DNA of 64,000 nucleotides from Escherichia phage PHB12. The position numbers and the translations under genes are program-made. Under the pieces are notes generated by a model that had not been told where the DNA came from, made no database searches, and saw only the letters and a program-made list of their open reading frames with translations. This document shows positions 12,251 to 34,005 of the stretch, piece after piece. Each line of letters opens with the position of its first letter. The first letter of the stretch is position 1. Location: sequence record MK524178.1. One strand, written 5' to 3'.

Positions 12251-12432
12251 TTATTCACCAATTAAAGTTTCAACAAAATTCACTAAATCATTCTGACAAG
12301 CATCAACCTGATTTTCATAAAAATCTCCGTTATCATTTACCGCGTGATAAGCTACATCATTCAAATCTGAATCGGCTTCACGTAAGTCACGGATAAGGTC
12401 CATCAATTTATTAGCTTGTTCACGGGTCATTT
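12251..12432 (-). CDS. small ORF, about 59 aa, below the ORF-track cutoff
   Basis: Manual translation MTREQANKLMDLIRDLREADSDLNDVAYHAVNDNGDFYENQVDACQNDLVNFVETLIGE; stop abuts the downstream start. Confidence 0.4.
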
Positions 12433-12594
12433 TACCATACTCGTTTCAATAAGATTCACTATGCCGTTTACCATGTTATAAGTAAACATCGGATAATTGT
12501 ATTGTACTACAACATAAGCGATAAGCAAAAGTTTCATTTTGTTCTCCATTTGTTTTGGTAGGATTACTATATCATAGTCCTACCAAGACGTAAA

Positions 12595-19484: not shown

Positions 19485-19787
19485 TTATTTACCTTTAATT
19501 ACTTTAGCTGCTTCGATAGCCGCTTGCTGAAGGTCGTCCATAGACATACCGAATTTAGAAGCAAAGTTATCAATTTTCTTTTCGACAGCATTCAAAGGCT
19601 TGGCCTGTTTACCTTCATTAGCGCCAGGAAGAGCGAGAATACGCTCTTTGTCAATATAAAGGCTTACAAGTTTCTTACGGTCTTTATCGGATAAATCATG
19701 AAATGAATGGGCCTTTTTATTTATAGCGGCTTCTAATTTACCTGCACTCACTCGCGCTTCAGTAATAAATTCTTGATATGTTTTCAT
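19485..19787 (-). CDS. internal-protein-like head protein with capsid-targeting leader, 100 aa
   Basis: Begins MKTYQEFITEA, the T4 internal-protein targeting sequence, ending in an LxE-type protease site. Confidence 0.7.
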   Translation of the reverse strand: MKTYQEFITEARVSAGKLEAAINKKAHSFHDLSDKDRKKLVSLYIDKERILALPGANEGKQAKPLNAVEKKIDNFASKFGMSMDDLQQAAIEAAKVIKGK

Positions 19788-19828
19788 ATGTTTCCTTTAA
19801 ATGTAAATAGGCCTAAGTATCGGCCTTA

Positions 19829-20407
19829 TTAATTACCACGGGCTGCATTAGCAACGGCATAAGCGTACTGAACATTAGCGTCTTTAAACGTACCTTTAGA
19901 GGTGTCTATTTCTGCCTTAAAGCCGCCTTTAGCCATAACATCGGCAAATTCTTTACGGAAGGCCATTGCATCAAGACCCTTCCATGATGATTTATGCTTG
20001 GCAAATTCAAGACCTGCGAAGTTGACAGCTTTAGCCAATTTATTATCAATGACCCATTTACCGGCTTTAGGCACAAACTTCGGGCCTTTTTGTTTAGAGA
20101 ACAGTTTTAAATTCCAGCGACGAAGATCACTGTCGGCTTTAACAAAAGCTGCGTCTAAGTTACTAGCAACAACATCTTCAATATGAGCAAATTTAAGTCC
20201 GTCAACTTCAATATTTAGATCGTTACGCCAGCGAAGTCCTTCCCAAGCGAAGGCTTTAAAATCAGAAGCTTTTGTGGCTAGATATCGTTCAAGTGGAGCA
20301 GTTTTAGGGTCGAAGCCGTTTCCACCACGATAAGTCCACTCGTCCTTATTAATGCCTTGAGCTTTTCCTGCAAAGGCCTCGGCGATAAATTCTTTATATG
20401 TTTTCAT
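19829..20407 (-). CDS. internal protein (IPIII-like), 192 aa
   Basis: Begins MKTYKEFIAEA; length close to T4 IPIII. Confidence 0.7.
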   Translation of the reverse strand: MKTYKEFIAEAFAGKAQGINKDEWTYRGGNGFDPKTAPLERYLATKASDFKAFAWEGLRWRNDLNIEVDGLKFAHIEDVVASNLDAAFVKADSDLRRWNLKLFSKQKGPKFVPKAGKWVIDNKLAKAVNFAGLEFAKHKSSWKGLDAMAFRKEFADVMAKGGFKAEIDTSKGTFKDANVQYAYAVANAARGN

Positions 20408-20470
20408 TTTTGTTTCCTTGTTTGTTTTGATAGAGTAATTATACCATATTAATACTTAAGCGTAAACTGT

Positions 20471-20731
20471 TTAAGCTTTACCGCCGGAAATAATTCCGAA
20501 GTTGTTAAAATCGTATCCAATATCGTCGACATCTACTTTAGGGCTTGCTACAACATAAGCAATTTCACTACGTTTTGCATAGGTGTTGATTTCTTTACCA
20601 TCGCCACCTAAGAAAGAATACCCATTACGTTTTAATGAGCCAAAGTCTTCCGCATCACCAATGAAAGCTTTAACTTTAAATTTGGGGTCTTTGGCATCTG
20701 CTTCAATGATAAATTCTTGATACATTTTCAT
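20471..20731 (-). CDS. internal-protein-like protein, 86 aa
   Basis: Begins MKMYQEFIIEA. Confidence 0.65.
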   Translation of the reverse strand: MKMYQEFIIEADAKDPKFKVKAFIGDAEDFGSLKRNGYSFLGGDGKEINTYAKRSEIAYVVASPKVDVDDIGYDFNNFGIISGGKA

Positions 20732-20739
20732 TTTTTTCC

Positions 20740-21153
20740 TTAGTAAATTGATTTACCATAGTATTTGTACCAAGTCGGACGTTGAGCAATTTTTTCATCT
20801 AAGCGTGCTTGACTTATCGCAATGGACGCTTCGGACGGGACGTAATTATTACGAAATTCTACAGGAATGTCGGAAATATCCTGGACTGTCGTGTCCTTGA
20901 TTTTGAAACCACGTTTCAAACATTCGGTGATTAGCTCGATTTGACGTAAACGTAAAAATTCGAGTTTGTCGTAAAAGAATGTTACGTGACCTGTGCCTAA
21001 GATAAATGTTGGAGAGATTTTAAAATCTTTTACACGTTTACCGTTTTGAACATGTTTACGGACTGCACCAAATACGCGTGGTAATTCACGATACTCAGCC
21101 ATAAGATGTTGGTCGGTCAGTTCGGAAACGAGTGTTAAATTGATACGAGTCAT
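20740..21153 (-). CDS. denV: endonuclease V (pyrimidine-dimer DNA glycosylase)
   Basis: [12 protein letters not shown]...[10 protein letters not shown] closely matches T4 DenV as recalled; start refined to the internal ATG. Confidence 0.92.
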
Positions 21154-21211
21154 AATTTCCTCCAAGTAGTTGATGAATGTATAGTATCAAAGTCCTTGGA
21201 GGAAGTAAACA

Positions 21212-21493
21212 CTATTTTTCTGAAGCGCCCGAAATATATTTTTCAAGACGTTGTTTCATCAGCGAGCCGTTCTTAGCGATTTCTTCCGGTTTATCGCACA
21301 TACGCAACAAGGCTTCAAGCTTAACGATATCACTGGTACGTTCAAATTTGCGAGTATCTATCTTACTAGCAAGTTCAGAAATACGTGCTAATAGACTTTC
21401 AGCTTCAACCAAAGCTGCACCTAGCTTAGTTGCAAATGTGTCAGTAGCTTCGTTAAGAATAGATTCTGATAAAAATTCACTATATGTTTTCAT
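21212..21493 (-). CDS. internal-protein-like protein (about 93 aa)
   Basis: From the internal ATG begins [11 protein letters not shown]. Confidence 0.6.
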
Positions 21494-21978
21494 ATATACG
21501 CTTTCCAAGTTCCTGTTTTAAATGTTGAGATTACGCGTTTCGCGCGATTAGGTGTCTGACGATACCATTTAGATTGGGCTAGATTTACTGCCGCTTCGTC
21601 CCAACGTTTCTGTTGAAGCATACGAAGAGAATTAGTAAAACCAGCGACGCCTGCTACACCCATTTGGAAGACCATATTGACCAATGCACATCGACGAACT
21701 GCATCTAAAGAATCATATACCGGTTTAAGTTTAGCATTACCCAAGATTCCGCGAACGGCTTTATCAACGTCTTCATTAAATAGCTTTTCAGCCTCATCAA
21801 GGGTAATTGTACCGTTGCATTTACGTCCGATCATTCTGTCAAGTTCAGCTTTAGCTACGGCTAAAGACGGGTTCTTTGTTACTAAATGGCCTATGCCAAT
21901 CGTCCAAAAGCCTTCAGTGTCTTTGTATAAAGACAGTCTAAGACCTTCGTCATTACGAAGCATTTCAAATATATTCAT
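21490..21978 (-). CDS. e: lysozyme (endolysin)
   Basis: [15 protein letters not shown]...[12 protein letters not shown] closely matches T4 lysozyme as recalled; SD sits in a hairpin (ATACCTCC/GGAGGTAT) at 21980-22005. Confidence 0.93.
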
Positions 21979-22012
21979 AATACCTCCCACGTTTATAGGA
22001 GGTATTTATTAC

Positions 22013-23860: not shown

Positions 23861-24166
23861 TTATTTTCCTCGACATTCTTTAATGAAATTTTCTAGATTG
23901 GTAGATTCAATAGCTTTTTTACGAGCTTCTGCGTGTTCTTCTTCGGACAATTTACATTTATAATTGACCCAGACATTATGGTCGAAACTAGTCGTAGCAT
24001 ATAATAACAATGCTCCAACGAATAGCAAAAACGGCGATAAGAATACAAAACCAGGAACACCATCCATATCGTAAGCCTTTTGTAATACTGCAACAGAAAG
24101 GGCTGCGTAAAAAGGTGATGCAAATATTGTTAAAAGACCAATTCGGTTGGTTTCGCCTAATTTCAT
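23861..24166 (-). CDS. two-TM membrane protein with C-terminal ENFIKECR tail, 101 aa
   Basis: Hydrophobic helices LLTIFASPFYAALSVAVL and FVFLSPFLLFVGALLLY. Confidence 0.55.
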   Translation of the reverse strand: MKLGETNRIGLLTIFASPFYAALSVAVLQKAYDMDGVPGFVFLSPFLLFVGALLLYATTSFDHNVWVNYKCKLSEEEHAEARKKAIESTNLENFIKECRGK

Positions 24167-24185
24167 AATATTCTCCTCATGTTTT

Positions 24186-24226
24186 AATAGGACTACTATA
24201 ACATAGTCCCTATAATTGTGTAAACA
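24186..24226 (-). promoter_or_regulatory. early promoter with palindrome (PeSL-type cassette)
   Basis: Minus-sense GTTTAC; inverted repeat TAGGACTA/TAGTCC over the -10 region. Confidence 0.55.
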
Positions 24227-25222: not shown

Positions 25223-25462
25223 TTAAATTTCACGACATGCGATATCATATTCATCCCAGAGGTCATCGTGTGAAGCCTCTACTAATGGAACGATTGTACC
25301 ATTTATGTCTTCATTATAAGGGCAAATTGTACAGTGCGCATCTTCGAATCGGATGCCTTTGTGTTCAGATTTTTTATAACGCATATCGAATATCTTTGCA
25401 AACTTTTCACGAGTAATGGTTTTAGCAACCACTTTGGTTCCAATACTTTCATAATAAATCAT
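25223..25462 (-). CDS. small Cys/His-containing protein, 79 aa
   Basis: ORF track; HCTICPY motif. Confidence 0.5.
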   Translation of the reverse strand: MIYYESIGTKVVAKTITREKFAKIFDMRYKKSEHKGIRFEDAHCTICPYNEDINGTIVPLVEASHDDLWDEYDIACREI

Positions 25463-25480
25463 TGTGGACTCCGTTTAATT

Positions 25481-25521
25481 TGATAGGACTACTATAACAT
25501 AGCCCTATCTTGTTGTAAACT
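25481..25521 (-). promoter_or_regulatory. early promoter with palindrome (PeSL-type cassette)
   Basis: Minus-sense GTTTAC plus near-copy of the TAGGACTACTATAACATAG element. Confidence 0.55.
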
Positions 25522-28937: not shown

Positions 28938-29095
28938 ACGAAACGCCGGGATTCGAACCCGGTTATTAAGCAGTTGACGCTACTCAATATTTTTAAAAGG
29001 CCATATCTCGACCATATCCGAACGTTCCGTCAAAAACGCTACTCGGCTTATAGCAAAGATATTTCCTCGAATCGATAATTCGGTGCGCCGTTTCT
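28938..29095 (-). ncRNA. candidate stable RNA with a tRNA-like T-arm and acceptor 3' end (possibly related to T4 species 1/2 RNAs)
   Basis: Minus-sense CCGGGTTCGAATCCCGG followed by CGTTTCG, with complementary GAAACG about 150 nt upstream; too long for a tRNA; no long ORF. Confidence 0.3.
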
Positions 29096-29197
29096 GCTGT
29101 GATGTAAGGGGATATTAACGAATCATAAAGATTTATTAAGACCAGTCCTTACACAGGGAACATCAGTCCGACGACTTGCCGGTAGCGACCCGGCTTC

Positions 29198-29542
29198 TTA
29201 TTTTGGCATATTATCAATTTGCTCTCGACGCCGACGCCATAGATTAATCGCTTCATTAACACATTCGGCGTTTAGTATATGACGGCAATAATATAATGAT
29301 TCGCGTTTCTGAAACCGATGTTGCAATGGGATTTCGTTTAAAAGGTCTTTGCGATCAAAGTATTCAAAACTAGTTAACCCGGAACGGTTTTTAATGAACT
29401 TCCAATGACCAAATTCATTTTGGAAATAAACGTAATCAGCGTGTTGATATAACGAATTAATCAACCGGTCGGAAATAACTGTATCCTGTTCGTTAAAATA
29501 AAACGTTAAATCATGAACTACCAGATAAACATTGCCTTTCAT
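29198..29542 (-). CDS. hypothetical protein (about 114 aa from the internal ATG) between the tRNAs and the RNA region
   Basis: ORF track frame; the alternative-start extension would overlap tRNA-Arg, so the internal ATG (MKGNVYLVVHD) is preferred. Confidence 0.45.
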   Translation of the reverse strand: MKGNVYLVVHDLTFYFNEQDTVISDRLINSLYQHADYVYFQNEFGHWKFIKNRSGLTSFEYFDRKDLLNEIPLQHRFQKRESLYYCRHILNAECVNEAINLWRRRREQIDNMPK

Positions 29543-29560
29543 ATTTTCCTCACTTAAAAT

Positions 29561-29637
<77 letters not shown>

Positions 29638-29643
29638 AATATA

Positions 29644-29717
29644 TGACCCAGACCAGATTCGAACTGGTAACCTTTCCCTTATGAGGGGACTGCTGCTAAC
29701 CGTTGAGCTACAGGGCC
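29644..29717 (-). tRNA. tRNA with anticodon CAT (Ile-lysidine or Met type)
   Basis: T-arm ACCAG-TTCGAAT-CTGGT and anticodon loop CTCATAA; acceptor and D stems each carry one mismatch in my hand fold. Confidence 0.5.
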
Positions 29718-29796
29718 TAAATAACTTTCTATTATGAAAGGCACTTTAGAGCACCTTTGGTAATAGAGGGTATGAATTAATAATAACACATAATTC

Positions 29797-30312
29797 TTAA
29801 AGCAAATCAACCATTTTAACGGTTGGCAAAACAATTTCTTTTTCAATATAAGCAAATTCGACACGTTCAACTACACGCAAGAAATCGTAATCATAGTATT
29901 CAGAAGCATAGCCAAGAATATCAATAAGTCCTTGAGATATCTCATCGCCTTTCACAAAGAACAGGTCGAATACGCGGGCTTCGTCTTCTTCAGATTTATC
30001 ACCAAGGTCGACTTCAATATCAAAGACCTTTTTAATAAATTCCGGTTGGAGTTGGTCTGAGAACAGTCCTTCAACCAGATATTCGTAGATAATAAGCGAG
30101 CAACGTCCGAATGGTGTATTACCGCAATAACGTTCGGCTTTAGTGCTAGAATGACGGCTCTTAAATTTCTTAAAGAGATATTTAAACTGTTGGAGCTCAT
30201 GCTCTTCCACTTCAAACAATGTTTTGGTTTTATAGTTGTCACCATCACTTTCATATGTAGTGACATCAATTACGTAGCCCTTAGGAATTGTACTGCCTAA
30301 ACGAATATTCAT
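29797..30312 (-). CDS. hypothetical protein, 171 aa
   Basis: ORF track. Confidence 0.55.
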   Translation of the reverse strand: MNIRLGSTIPKGYVIDVTTYESDGDNYKTKTLFEVEEHELQQFKYLFKKFKSRHSSTKAERYCGNTPFGRCSLIIYEYLVEGLFSDQLQPEFIKKVFDIEVDLGDKSEEDEARVFDLFFVKGDEISQGLIDILGYASEYYDYDFLRVVERVEFAYIEKEIVLPTVKMVDLL

Positions 30313-30316
30313 TTAA

Positions 30317-30607
30317 TCACCATACCATATTAATGTAAGTATACTCAATACATTCAAGATTTAAAGGATTCTTGAAAATATCATATTCAAGAGGGCCTTT
30401 TTCTGTTTCAATAAAGAAATCAAAGTTAACTGTGTTAAATTTATCGTCTTCGCAGAGTAATTTAACCTGTGAAGACGAACGGTCGATATAAACCTTTTCA
30501 ACCTCAAAGTTAGTCAGAATACCGTAGTCATCGACTAGTGCTTTAGCTGCACGTTGGTCGCTTTCATATCCATTCTCAACGGATTTTACCTTAGCATAAA
30601 GAATCAT
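30317..30607 (-). CDS. hypothetical protein, 96 aa
   Basis: ORF track. Confidence 0.5.
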   Translation of the reverse strand: MILYAKVKSVENGYESDQRAAKALVDDYGILTNFEVEKVYIDRSSSQVKLLCEDDKFNTVNFDFFIETEKGPLEYDIFKNPLNLECIEYTYINMVW

Positions 30608-30984
30608 GAATGTTCCACCACTTCAAAGGTATGAGCATCAACAATATGGTACCAGTCAAAATTTTCTTCTGCGTTTTTATAAATTTCGCGAAGAGCTTCA
30701 ACAGTTTTTCCTGTAGCAACAAGATCATCAATACCACCAAGAGGATAACAGTCATAACCAGCAAACAGAAGGAAATTAATAGTTTCTGTAGGTTCTGGAT
30801 GCAGAACACCGTTATCATCTACCACTTCAAAGAAAGTGTAAGAAGGAGTACAAGTTTTAATCCAAGCCCATGCTTGAGCCGCTGAATCAAATGGTCTGCG
30901 TATCAAACGACAATCCGGGTCTTTAGAAGGATTTGCTTCAAAATCCGCATATACGTGATATTTCATTTTACTCACCTTTTGCAA
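30604..30984 (-). CDS. hypothetical protein, 126 aa
   Basis: ORF track; likely start MKYHVYADF. Confidence 0.5.
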   Translation of the reverse strand: MQKVSKMKYHVYADFEANPSKDPDCRLIRRPFDSAAQAWAWIKTCTPSYTFFEVVDDNGVLHPEPTETINFLLFAGYDCYPLGGIDDLVATGKTVEALREIYKNAEENFDWYHIVDAHTFEVVEHS

Positions 30985-31165
30985 TTTTATCCATAACGAT
31001 AGCGATTAAGCCGATTAGAAATGCTACTACCAATGAGATAGAGTTTTCGGTTGTTGTCAGTAGTCCACAAATGAATCCTACAAACATCGAAAAACTAAAA
31101 GCCATTGAAGCAATTACTACAGCAACATTACGAATCAGTTCAGCGCGTTTCATTTTATTCTCCAT
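30968..31165 (-). CDS. small two-TM membrane protein, 65 aa
   Basis: Hydrophobic segments VAVVIASMAFSFSMFVGFICGLL and LVVAFLIGLIAIVM. Confidence 0.5.
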   Translation of the reverse strand: MENKMKRAELIRNVAVVIASMAFSFSMFVGFICGLLTTTENSISLVVAFLIGLIAIVMDKIAKGE

Positions 31166-31180
31166 TTACTCATTTGTTTT

Positions 31181-31219
31181 GATAGGACTACTATAACATA
31201 GTCCTATAGGCTTGTATAC
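31181..31219 (-). promoter_or_regulatory. early promoter with palindrome (PeSL-type cassette, copy A)
   Basis: TTGATAGGACTACTATAACATAGTCCTAT element with a GTATAC -35-like hexamer. Confidence 0.55.
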
Positions 31220-31221
31220 CT

Positions 31222-31485
31222 TTATTTCAAATATATTGCGTATTTTTTATAGCCACCAGGCTCGTGTCGAAGACCTTTATCATTCGCAAAACGTTGAATG
31301 TTATTGAACTGGTTTTCATCAAGTTCGGATGTGTCAAATACGAAAAAGTTTCGTTTGTTACCAAGCGTGATATGCGGAGTTAAGTCAATGTTATACAAAT
31401 TAAGAATATCAGCAATAACCTGATTAACCGCTTTGTTAATTTTCACACCAGATGATTCTGAGATGAATTCGTTGAAAGTTTTCAT
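31222..31485 (-). CDS. internal-protein-like protein (about 87 aa)
   Basis: From the internal ATG begins MKTFNEFISES. Confidence 0.6.
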   Translation of the reverse strand: MKTFNEFISESSGVKINKAVNQVIADILNLYNIDLTPHITLGNKRNFFVFDTSELDENQFNNIQRFANDKGLRHEPGGYKKYAIYLK

Positions 31486-31506
31486 TTTAGGTTCCATTTG
31501 GTTGTT

Positions 31507-31547
31507 TTGATAGGACTACTATAACATAGTCCTATCATGTTGTAAAT
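31507..31547 (-). promoter_or_regulatory. early promoter with palindrome (PeSL-type cassette, copy B)
   Basis: Same TTGATAGGACTACTATAACATAGTCCTAT element as at 31178; -35-like GTAAAT on plus. Confidence 0.55.
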
Positions 31548-31858
31548 TATTTTATGCCTTTAGAAGAAATGGTATTTTGGCGTTTGACCCCTGTTTGTGA
31601 AAAATCGTGGTTATCGATTTGGTCAACTCGCATAACACCAAATGCGGATTTAATTTTGGCTTTTGAACCTTTTTTGATACTAATTACCATATAAGTATCA
31701 TTTTTCTTATATTCGAAATTTGTTACTTCAACGCCTTGATTAGAAATTGACTTAATAATAGCATTAGCGTATTCATCATCTAACGGACCGTTAGTGTTAA
31801 TAATAAAATTTTTATCCGCTTTAGTAGCTTCCGCGATGAATTCTTGATAGGTTTTCAT
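31547..31858 (-). CDS. internal protein (IPI position), 103 aa
   Basis: Begins MKTYQEFIAEA; lies immediately before 57B as ipI does in T4. Confidence 0.65.
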   Translation of the reverse strand: MKTYQEFIAEATKADKNFIINTNGPLDDEYANAIIKSISNQGVEVTNFEYKKNDTYMVISIKKGSKAKIKSAFGVMRVDQIDNHDFSQTGVKRQNTISSKGIK

Positions 31859-31884
31859 TTTATTTCCTTGAGGTTGTTTATTTG

Positions 31885-31922
31885 ATAGGATGATAGTAAC
31901 ACACCATCATCCTTATGTAAAC
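31885..31922 (-). promoter_or_regulatory. early promoter with palindrome upstream of 57B
   Basis: Minus-sense GTTTAC, 17-nt spacer, TACTAT; inverted repeat AGGATGAT/ATCATCCT. Confidence 0.55.
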
Positions 31923-31935
31923 TGTTTTGTGAAAA

Positions 31936-32621
<686 letters not shown>

Positions 32622-32625
32622 TTTA

Positions 32626-33360
32626 TCACCTTAAGATTTTTTCAATTTTAGAATAAAGCTCTTCTAACGAGCCGTCGTTTGTAATAACTAAGTCGCCTTC
32701 TTCAATAGGCAACCCAGCTTCTGTAATATGTTTATCAGTGGATTCCGTACCAGAACGAACCACATGAATAACTGTAGCACCCATCGCTCTAGCGGTTTCC
32801 ATTTCATGGACTTGGCGTGTATCGGTCACAACGTAGTAATCGAAATCACTTCCAATATAATCCATATAGTTTAATGCAAAAAGCTTAACCCAATACATAC
32901 GGTCAAATAAATTAACGACAACATCCGTACCGAGGGCTTGCATAAGACGGCGGATTGACCATGTGTCGTTGATATTATTTATAGCTTCACGCAGGGCTTC
33001 ATATGGTTTAATATCTAGATACGAATATCCACCTTCTAACGATGATAACACTTTAACATTATTAATCGGTAAATATTGACTTTGCAAATAAATTAGCGCT
33101 TCTTCCATTAATTCAATAACATCCAATTTATTGAGATTTAATGGTGTTTCACGGTCGTATCCAATGCCTTCAAAGTATTCATATTTCAACTTGGTGAATA
33201 CATCCGGGTTTTCGGCGTGTTTACGCTCCCAAGCTATTGCTAGAGCGTCTTTAATTGGATATGCTAATTGATATTTTATGGATTTAAAGTTTGAATTGAT
33301 GTAATCAGCAGTAGTGTCTTTACCACTACGTTTGATGCCGCTTAAAAAGATTAGCTCCAT
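32626..33360 (-). CDS. 1: deoxynucleoside monophosphate kinase
   Basis: 244 aa; P-loop LSGIKRSGKDT. Confidence 0.88.
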   Translation of the reverse strand: MELIFLSGIKRSGKDTTADYINSNFKSIKYQLAYPIKDALAIAWERKHAENPDVFTKLKYEYFEGIGYDRETPLNLNKLDVIELMEEALIYLQSQYLPINNVKVLSSLEGGYSYLDIKPYEALREAINNINDTWSIRRLMQALGTDVVVNLFDRMYWVKLFALNYMDYIGSDFDYYVVTDTRQVHEMETARAMGATVIHVVRSGTESTDKHITEAGLPIEEGDLVITNDGSLEELYSKIEKILR

Positions 33361-33414
33361 AGGTTTTTCCTCATATAATTTATGAACGATTATAACATAT
33401 GGAGCTAGAAGCGA

Positions 33415-34005
33415 TTAGCGCAAGGAAGGGTGTCTAGAAATGGATTTAGATTCGGCAGCCTGACGTGGTTGTTGAGATACAATGACTTCGCCATCCTTTT
33501 CTATCGTCATATACGCGTAATGAATAGTTGCTACGCAAGTAACGGCAGGGTCAGAGTCTTCAGTGTAACTAAATTCAATTTCGCTCAAATCGGAAATCCA
33601 TGGTTTATAGAAATTTGCCGTCAAAACCACTTCAGTCTTATTGTTGTTTAAAATGTGCAAAGTAACAAACTCAGGACCATCGGAGTGGGCCGTATTATGT
33701 CCGGTTATATAGTTATTAGTGCTGAGCATCCATTTATACATGTTCATCCAGGACGTCATGTCTTCATCAACTATAAATCGTACAATAAAGGGGTCATATT
33801 CAAATGTAGTGCCTGCACGCATTGCACGCCCTAACCCCATTGTGCCTGTCACAGTTTCAACAACAGGAATTCTCACACCTGGCAACGGCGCTGTTTGGGC
33901 ATTGAGCACAAAACCTGAAGTTCGTGTACTATCCGGGATATCCACAACAAAGTTTGTTATATTTGTTTGATTAAAAATCTGTCTCGCTGGACGAGTCATA
34001 AGCAC
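33415..34005 (-). CDS. 3: tail completion / sheath stabiliser
   Basis: Position between gene 1 and gene 2 and size match T4 gp3; no distinctive motif. Confidence 0.6.
   Translation of the reverse strand: MLMTRPARQIFNQTNITNFVVDIPDSTRTSGFVLNAQTAPLPGVRIPVVETVTGTMGLGRAMRAGTTFEYDPFIVRFIVDEDMTSWMNMYKWMLSTNNYITGHNTAHSDGPEFVTLHILNNNKTEVVLTANFYKPWISDLSEIEFSYTEDSDPAVTCVATIHYAYMTIEKDGEVIVSQQPRQAAESKSISRHPSLR

Follow-up and report, generated by a model that had tools for sequence, protein, structure and literature searches.

The capsid-targeting sequence (CTS) is the sole conserved feature of diverse internal (defense) proteins (PMC3012670). All three internal proteins of T4 (Ip1, Ip2, and Ip3) are specific inhibitors, each of a different GmrSD type IV restriction enzyme, and many other Ips are uncharacterized (PMC12373910). 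As summarized in two later papers, Repoila et al. reported PeSL-like elements at both variable IP loci in 1994 (PMC2839356; PMC4122927); the locus considered here, the Ip7 and Ip9 genes, and their flanking elements had already been described in that year, and the slot has been known since then to carry different injected-protein genes in different phages. T4 was found to have a single ipI between 57B and trna.4, as stated in the initial annotation of the DNA analyzed here.

T-even phages maintain an exchangeable repertoire of injected counter-defense proteins, and the locus described below illustrates how: a constant leader, serving as an "address label," together with constant borders would let unrelated cargo be swapped, which probably tunes host range. 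We put at roughly 0.85 the probability that the ipI locus of the RB69-like phage PHB12 holds two unrelated IP cassettes, with injected anti-defense cargo, that are exchanged via conserved borders.

The 57B-trna.4 slot of phage PHB12 and its promoter-hairpin elements

We analyzed a 64,000-nt stretch of PHB12 DNA (the window), which identity and gene order both place among the RB69-like Mosigviruses. The 1.55-kb region around the ip genes is 96 to 98% identical to about 20 Mosigvirus genomes, including PTE-Eco05, SF, mogra, and phiE142, and an RB69 alignment covers 84% of it. The exact ipA-ipB array is common in sequenced Mosigviruses and present in about 26 sequenced phages, and the phenomenon that it represents is already known. 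All genes of the region lie on the minus strand and follow the transcription order 1 > 57A > 57B > ipA > ipB > trna.4 > trna.3 > trna.2 > tRNA-Met > tRNA-Arg. The features of the slot and its surroundings are as follows.

32626-33360, minus strand: gene 1 (dNMP kinase)
32976-32983, minus strand: TATAAATA, candidate late promoter inside gene 1; T4 has the same motif at the equivalent gene 1 position (L003 3006-3013, minus strand)
32391-32621, minus strand: 57A
31936-32391, minus strand: 57B, Acb1-type anti-CBASS phosphodiesterase (Pfam Acb1, 6.7e-59; synteny with mogra, RB69, and T4)
31870-31921, minus strand: E1, predicted early-type promoter of ipA (promoter scan; hairpin of -15.4 kcal/mol, z -3.9)
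31547-31858, minus strand: ipA, Ip7-family internal head protein, 103 aa (phrog_2667, 1.8e-38)
31495-31546, minus strand: E2, predicted early-type promoter of ipB (promoter scan; hairpin of -17.5 kcal/mol, z -6.4)
31222-31485, minus strand: ipB, Ip9-family internal head protein, 87 aa (phrog_7673, 4.8e-49)
31167-31218, minus strand: E3, predicted promoter-hairpin before trna.4, at the downstream border of the array (promoter scan; hairpin z -2.7)
30968-31153, minus strand: trna.4, small membrane protein (phrog_1692, 1.7e-32; annotated trna.4 in RB69, T4, and T2)

The slot is bordered upstream by 57B and downstream by trna.4, both conserved. Because the adjoining 57B is, by its Pfam match, Acb1, an anti-CBASS nuclease, the array lies in a counter-defense neighborhood. 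The mogra annotation names the two products "internal head protein 7" (ipA) and "Ip9 putative internal head protein" (ipB). An Rfam search over positions 29000 to 33500 matched two tRNAs and nothing else; the promoter-hairpin element had no match.

The initial annotation reported two ORFs with MKTFNEFISES and MKTYQEFIAEA leaders, and both were found intact (ipB and ipA, respectively). It also placed the genes upstream of 57B, each behind its own copy of one repeat. That assignment of repeats to genes was mistaken because it was read along the plus strand, whereas the minus strand is the coding one: despite their lower plus-strand coordinates they lie transcriptionally downstream of 57B, as ipI does in T4, and the copy at 31507-31535 precedes ipB, whereas that at 31179-31207 lies past ipB, ahead of trna.4. 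In front of the MKTYQEFIAEA gene stands instead the diverged element at 31870-31921. The two repeat copies themselves are exact, one of them having been given a start (31178) that is off by one base.

The mechanically called ORF of ipB begins 4 codons earlier, at 31497 (MEPK...). This in-frame ATG, 4 codons before MKT, is present in both ipB (31486-31497, minus strand) and RB69 ipI (L002 3114-3125, minus strand), and it is used as the start in the RB69 annotation but not in that of mogra. The MKT start is more likely, since GGAA stands 9 nt before it and the MEPK start has no Shine-Dalgarno sequence. A second annotation difference concerns the RB69 counterpart of ipA, RB69ORF156c (L002 3160-3486), in which TAT stands in place of the TAA stop of the window (31547-31549); the RB69 ORF is thus 5 codons longer (YFTTR) and overlaps the -35 box belonging to the element that follows.

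In a consensus scan, E1, E2, and E3 all scored as promoters with a TG extended -10, matching at 9 to 10 of 12 positions. E1 consists of TTTACA (31921-31916), a 17-nt spacer, and TG-TACTAT with the -10 at 31898-31893, and embeds the hairpin AGGATGATGGTG/TACTATCATCCT. E2 has TTTACA (31546-31541), N17, and TG-TATAGT ending at 31518, with an embedded 12-bp hairpin, TGATAGGACTAT/GTAGTCCTATCA; E3 reads TATACA-N17-TG-TATAGT and has a hairpin identical to that of E2. Each predicted hairpin, of 10 to 12 bp, covers the spacer, the -10 box, and the next ~10 nt, with energies of -12.7 to -17.5 kcal/mol and z-scores of -2.7 to -6.4, i.e., far more stable than dinucleotide shuffles. There is no T-run after the hairpin, and the scan turned up no canonical terminator on the coding strand within the array.

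The 29-nt repeat TTGATAGGACTACTATAACATAGTCCTAT occurs exactly at 31179-31207 (in E3) and 31507-31535 (in E2), with a 1-mismatch copy at 25480-25508; shuffled sequence gave an expectation of 0 matches. The repeat shared by E2 and E3 is exact over 34 nt, and an extended form of 43 nt is 91% identical. E1 resembles the E2/E3 repeat in layout and differs from it in stem sequence (76% identity over 21 nt). The T4 element before ipI has the same architecture as E1, and T4, RB15, T2, and other phages have equivalent elements with unrelated arms that fold at the same place. The exact center of the hairpin varies from element to element. Within the GGACTA family, 13 unique copies show almost no variation; a compensatory A-T to G-C change and a G-U intermediate were each seen once.

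A 24-nt core of the repeat occurs five times in the window, against 0 expected, always on the minus strand (12559, 24188, 25484, 31183, and 31511). The three copies outside the array precede small genes that do not encode IPs.

12543-12594, minus strand: core-bearing element before a 40-aa ORF (12427-12549)
24173-24224, minus strand: core-bearing element before a 101-aa membrane ORF (23861-24166)
25468-25519, minus strand: core-bearing element before a 79-aa ORF (25223-25462)

Since these three copies precede non-IP genes, the element is a general early-type promoter/hairpin unit of the lineage and not an IP signal. The census rests on the specific 24-nt core; a generic promoter-plus-hairpin regular expression matched 21 times across the window and ~11 times in shuffles, and is not discriminating. 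The 40-aa ORF at 12427-12549 shares its first codons (MENKMK) with trna.4.

Slot content and breakpoints among related phages

For a survey of the slot, 36 further loci were fetched through 57B. Among the 37 loci having both 57B and trna.4, the slot contained 0 to 4 leader-flagged genes, and the 57B-trna.4 gap ranged from 71 to 1658 nt; in one surveyed locus, five IP-like ORFs were discerned by eye. Clustering of the cargo gave 19 families, 17 of which, mutually unrelated, occur at the 57B slot (39 arrays examined). Gene order varies as well: Ip7 comes before Ip9 in the window, mogra, and phiE142, and Ip9 before Ip7 in RB15, F25, L022, and L029. The synteny comparison called for in the initial annotation thus revealed an array of cassettes with different contents in related phages, which upholds the cassette half of its proposal of "duplication or cassette insertion."

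The remaining 2 of the 19 families, ipII-like and ipIII-like, were found only at the second IP locus of the window (19485-21493, minus strand), which accounts for four of the six leader-bearing genes in the window and comprises the following features.

21490-21990, minus strand: e (lysozyme)
21212-21493, minus strand: Ip5-like gene
20740-21165, minus strand: denV
20471-20731, minus strand: 86-aa IP, also a phrog_2667 match
19829-20407, minus strand: ipIII-like gene
19485-19787, minus strand: ipII-like gene

The order of transcription here is e > Ip5-like > denV > 86-aa IP > ipIII-like > ipII-like. The corresponding T4 order is e > ipIII > ipII > denV, whereas in the window denV is interleaved and there are two extra cassettes. 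The Ip5-like family and family 5 occupy the 57B slot in other phages and the e/denV locus in the window; families move between the two IP loci.

Two comparisons locate the breakpoints at the 57B slot. Collinearity with RB69, at 97.7% identity, holds over 32500-31459, a stretch that takes in 57B, E1, ipA, and E2 and reaches into the leader codons of ipB; the ipB cargo (31458-31220) is unrelated to RB69, and homology is back at 31219, where E3 starts. In two viral contigs that are among the closest relatives by 57B, L007 and L009, this gene is 97 to 98% identical to that of the window and the slot has no ip gene, being a 71- to 75-nt gap with a single promoter-hairpin element (L007 4453-4524; L009 3211-3286). 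Homology of the window to these contigs extends to 31916, in the E1 -35 box, and again from 31237, making the array (31915-31238) an indel. At the L007 junction the two flanks overlap by ~25 nt, and exactly one element remains. The RB69 and the L007/L009 breakpoints alike fall in leader-coding and promoter-hairpin sequences, and the L007/L009 pattern is the product that would be expected of recombination between repeated borders. We suggest that each cassette border consists of a putative early-type promoter, TTTACA-N17-TG-TAnnnT, with a hairpin across the -10 region, and that short homologies in these borders and in the leader-coding DNA could let cassettes be gained, lost, replaced, or put in a new order among related phages.

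The element might instead be a plain early promoter of the lineage that plays no part in shuffling, the slot varying by illegitimate recombination or through homology of the leader DNA alone. Such an explanation, which we consider unlikely though worth keeping in view, would account for the copies in front of non-IP genes (12559, 24188, and 25484) and for arrays in which ip genes abut without an element; moreover, the observation of Repoila et al. is described in PMC4122927 as made "without detailing a mechanism." Against it stand the coincidence of the RB69, L007, and L009 breakpoints with elements and the exactly one element left at the L007 junction, and short homologies of <50 bp suffice for T4 recombination (PMC2839356). 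The abutting genes do set a limit on the role of the borders. Adjacent ip genes in several related arrays are no more than 10 nt apart, with no intervening element, and the promoter-hairpin therefore cannot be the sole recombination substrate; the ~30-nt leader-coding homology must also be a crossover site.

Altered forms of both families occur among the relatives. The "ip7" of phage OLB35 (P0017, 77 aa) is a leaderless chimera in which a middle part of Ip7 is fused to the last 32 residues of Ip9, and truncated Ip9 forms are present in phage FL31 (P0016, 54 aa) and in a metagenomic sequence (P0027, 71 aa). These three forms can be taken as signs of ongoing array decay or recombination.

The ipA and ipB proteins and their relatives

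In PHROG searches, residues 1 to 103 of ipA aligned to positions 1 to 101 of the 101-position phrog_2667 profile, and residues 1 to 87 of ipB to positions 1 to 90 of the 90-position phrog_7673 profile, full length in both cases. ipA shares 99% identity with RB69ORF156c and, over 100% of its length, 66% with T2 Ip7; ipB is 71% identical to RB15 Ip9 and 73% identical to RB32 Ip9. The first 10 codons of ipA (31829-31858) encode the exact T4 capsid-targeting sequence, MKTYQEFIAE (10/10 match), and those of ipB (31456-31485) encode MKTFNEFISE, a 7/10 match. The leader of T4 IPI, MKTFKEFTST, is further from the MKTYQEFIAE consensus than that of ipB. An (L/I)-x-E sequence at the end of the leader is the site of the T4 prohead protease, gp21. 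The predicted protease sites are IAE|A in ipA and ISE|S in ipB, and cleavage there would leave mature proteins of 93 aa (pI 9.5) and 77 aa (pI 9.0), respectively; predicted masses of the mature pair are 8.8 and 10.3 kDa. An AlphaFold2 (AF2) model of ipA predicts a ferredoxin-like core and a basic, disordered tail.

Pseudogene status of either gene, raised in the initial annotation as an argument against its reading, did not hold up. Both are intact, each is present in ~26 GenBank phages at at least 95% identity, and both are under purifying selection (dN/dS 0.03 to 0.17; 0.03 to 0.11 for ipA alone), synonymous sites being saturated between ipA/ipB and their Tequatrovirus orthologues. Pfam returned no family above threshold for ipA or ipB, with sub-threshold chance matches only, and a PDB sequence search with the two profiles gave no matches, hence no solved structure, IPI* included. 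A word-indexed homologue search found 17 relatives of ipB and 8 of ipA, all T4-like. Literature searches on Ip5, Ip7, Ip8, and Ip9 returned nothing relevant (inositol-phosphate and interview papers only), and one for RB69ORF156c found nothing.

By analogy with IPI, IPII, and IPIII of T4, ipA and ipB would each comprise a ~10-residue N-terminal capsid-targeting sequence and a small basic cargo domain. The leader would dock the protein in the scaffolding core of the prohead and would then be cut off by gp21 after (I/L)-x-E, and the mature proteins would remain with the packaged DNA, reaching the cell together with it. Once injected they probably disarm a host defense before any phage gene is expressed, the likeliest targets being particular modification-dependent (GmrSD-type) restriction enzymes. 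For packaging and cleavage this proposal draws on the sequence motif. As regards the target, the initial annotation called for comparing the mature regions with T4 IPI, and BLASTP aligned residues 1 to 12 or 1 to 14 only. Because ipA and ipB are unrelated to mature IPI, a GmrSD test modeled on IPI has the standing of an analogy. What Ip7 and Ip9 inhibit is of practical interest in phage therapy, targets being known only for Ip1 to Ip3.

It is conceivable that ipA, ipB, or both are ordinary early cytoplasmic proteins with a leader-like N terminus and are neither packaged nor injected. The adjoining promoters are of the early type, with no late promoter motif directly upstream of ipA or ipB, and siphoviruses have homologues of the Ip9 cargo that lack the CTS. 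We nonetheless regard this as quite improbable given the exact T4 CTS of ipA and an ipB leader closer to the consensus than that of T4 IPI. Across the alignments of ipA and ipB orthologues, moreover, the (I)-x-E motif is kept and the residues that follow it vary. As for timing, TATAAATA in gene 1 is conserved, and the minus strand shows no canonical terminator between it (32976-32983) and the ip genes; late read-through from this motif could supply 57A-57B-ipA-ipB during prohead assembly.

The Ip9 cargo also occurs outside T4-like phages. Two unrelated phages have it without a capsid-targeting leader, as stand-alone genes of 72 to 74 aa, and in Ackermannviridae it lies inside, or at the end of, a protein of 860 to 965 residues, with putative structural genes adjoining.

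L043 1492-1716: stand-alone Ip9 cargo, Seuratvirus KS_S4
L045 1507-1725: stand-alone Ip9 cargo, phage SHAK7858 (~44-kb Escherichia phage)
L044 1-1734: Ip9 cargo in Kuttervirus allotria gene 82 (a further homologue is P0032)

Several metagenomic homologues of the cargo have the leader and others do not. An exhaustive HMM search with the Ip9 profile matched only 19 cluster representatives; one of these, P0042, a LysM-repeat protein, is regarded as spurious. Because CTS-less homologues exist in other phage families, the Ip9 cargo can work uninjected. We tentatively suggest that it may be a portable domain of ~70 residues that phage families deliver by different routes: leader-fused and injected in T4-like phages, free-standing in Seuratvirus and the ~44-kb Escherichia phage, and embedded in a larger protein in Ackermannviridae. 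If the domain neutralizes a single widespread host defense, and if Ip7 and Ip9 carry "one Ip, one GmrSD variant" over to new targets, the array would supply two new injected anti-defense proteins. The leaderless and embedded forms are a modestly new side observation.

That the array arose by tandem duplication, as the other half of the initial proposal had it, making ipA and ipB paralogues of one ancestral ipI-type gene, was rejected as highly improbable: the 12-residue leader common to both, leader-coding DNA 79% identical over 34 nt, and the similar flanking elements would fit such an origin, but ipA and ipB share residues 1 to 12 and nothing beyond, neither resembles T4 IPI past the leader, their PHROG families and predicted topologies differ, and each has its own orthologues elsewhere, in other orders and combinations.

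Comparison with T-even IP loci and PeSL

The array with two unrelated, exchangeable cassettes agrees with the T-even 57B-trna.4 IP locus in its slot, its leaders, its Ip7 and Ip9 families, and the type of its intergenic promoter/stem-loop; Tequatrovirus Ip7 and Ip9 proteins, however, are only 64 to 74% identical to the Mosigvirus versions described here. T4 IPI and its mature form, IPI* (pI 9.0), resemble ipA and ipB in locus, leader-plus-cleavage design, mature size, and pI, but the mature part of IPI* has no sequence similarity to either. In the RB69 array, 57B-ORF156c-ipI-trna.4, the ipB cargo is the one point of difference from the window: the second slot of RB69 holds a true IPI orthologue, whereas the window has an Ip9-like gene there.

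The other described system to which the locus can be compared is PeSL of RB49 and phi1 (Arbiol et al. 2010, PMC2839356; Comeau et al. 2014, PMC4122927), in which, as here, a repeated promoter plus stem-loop surrounds variable small genes. PeSL and the window elements are alike in having junctions of insertions, deletions, or replacements inside the element (here, with RB69, L007, and L009), and the strong sigma-70-like early promoter of PeSL has its counterpart in the predicted promoter sequences of E1 to E3. They differ in the stem-loop, which in PeSL is G+C-rich, with polyG/polyC, stands beside the promoter, and is a terminator, whereas the window hairpin is AT-rich, overlaps the spacer and -10 region, and has neither a polyG/polyC stem nor a T-run. 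The PeSL authors class the T-even IP elements as analogues, not homologues (PMC2839356).
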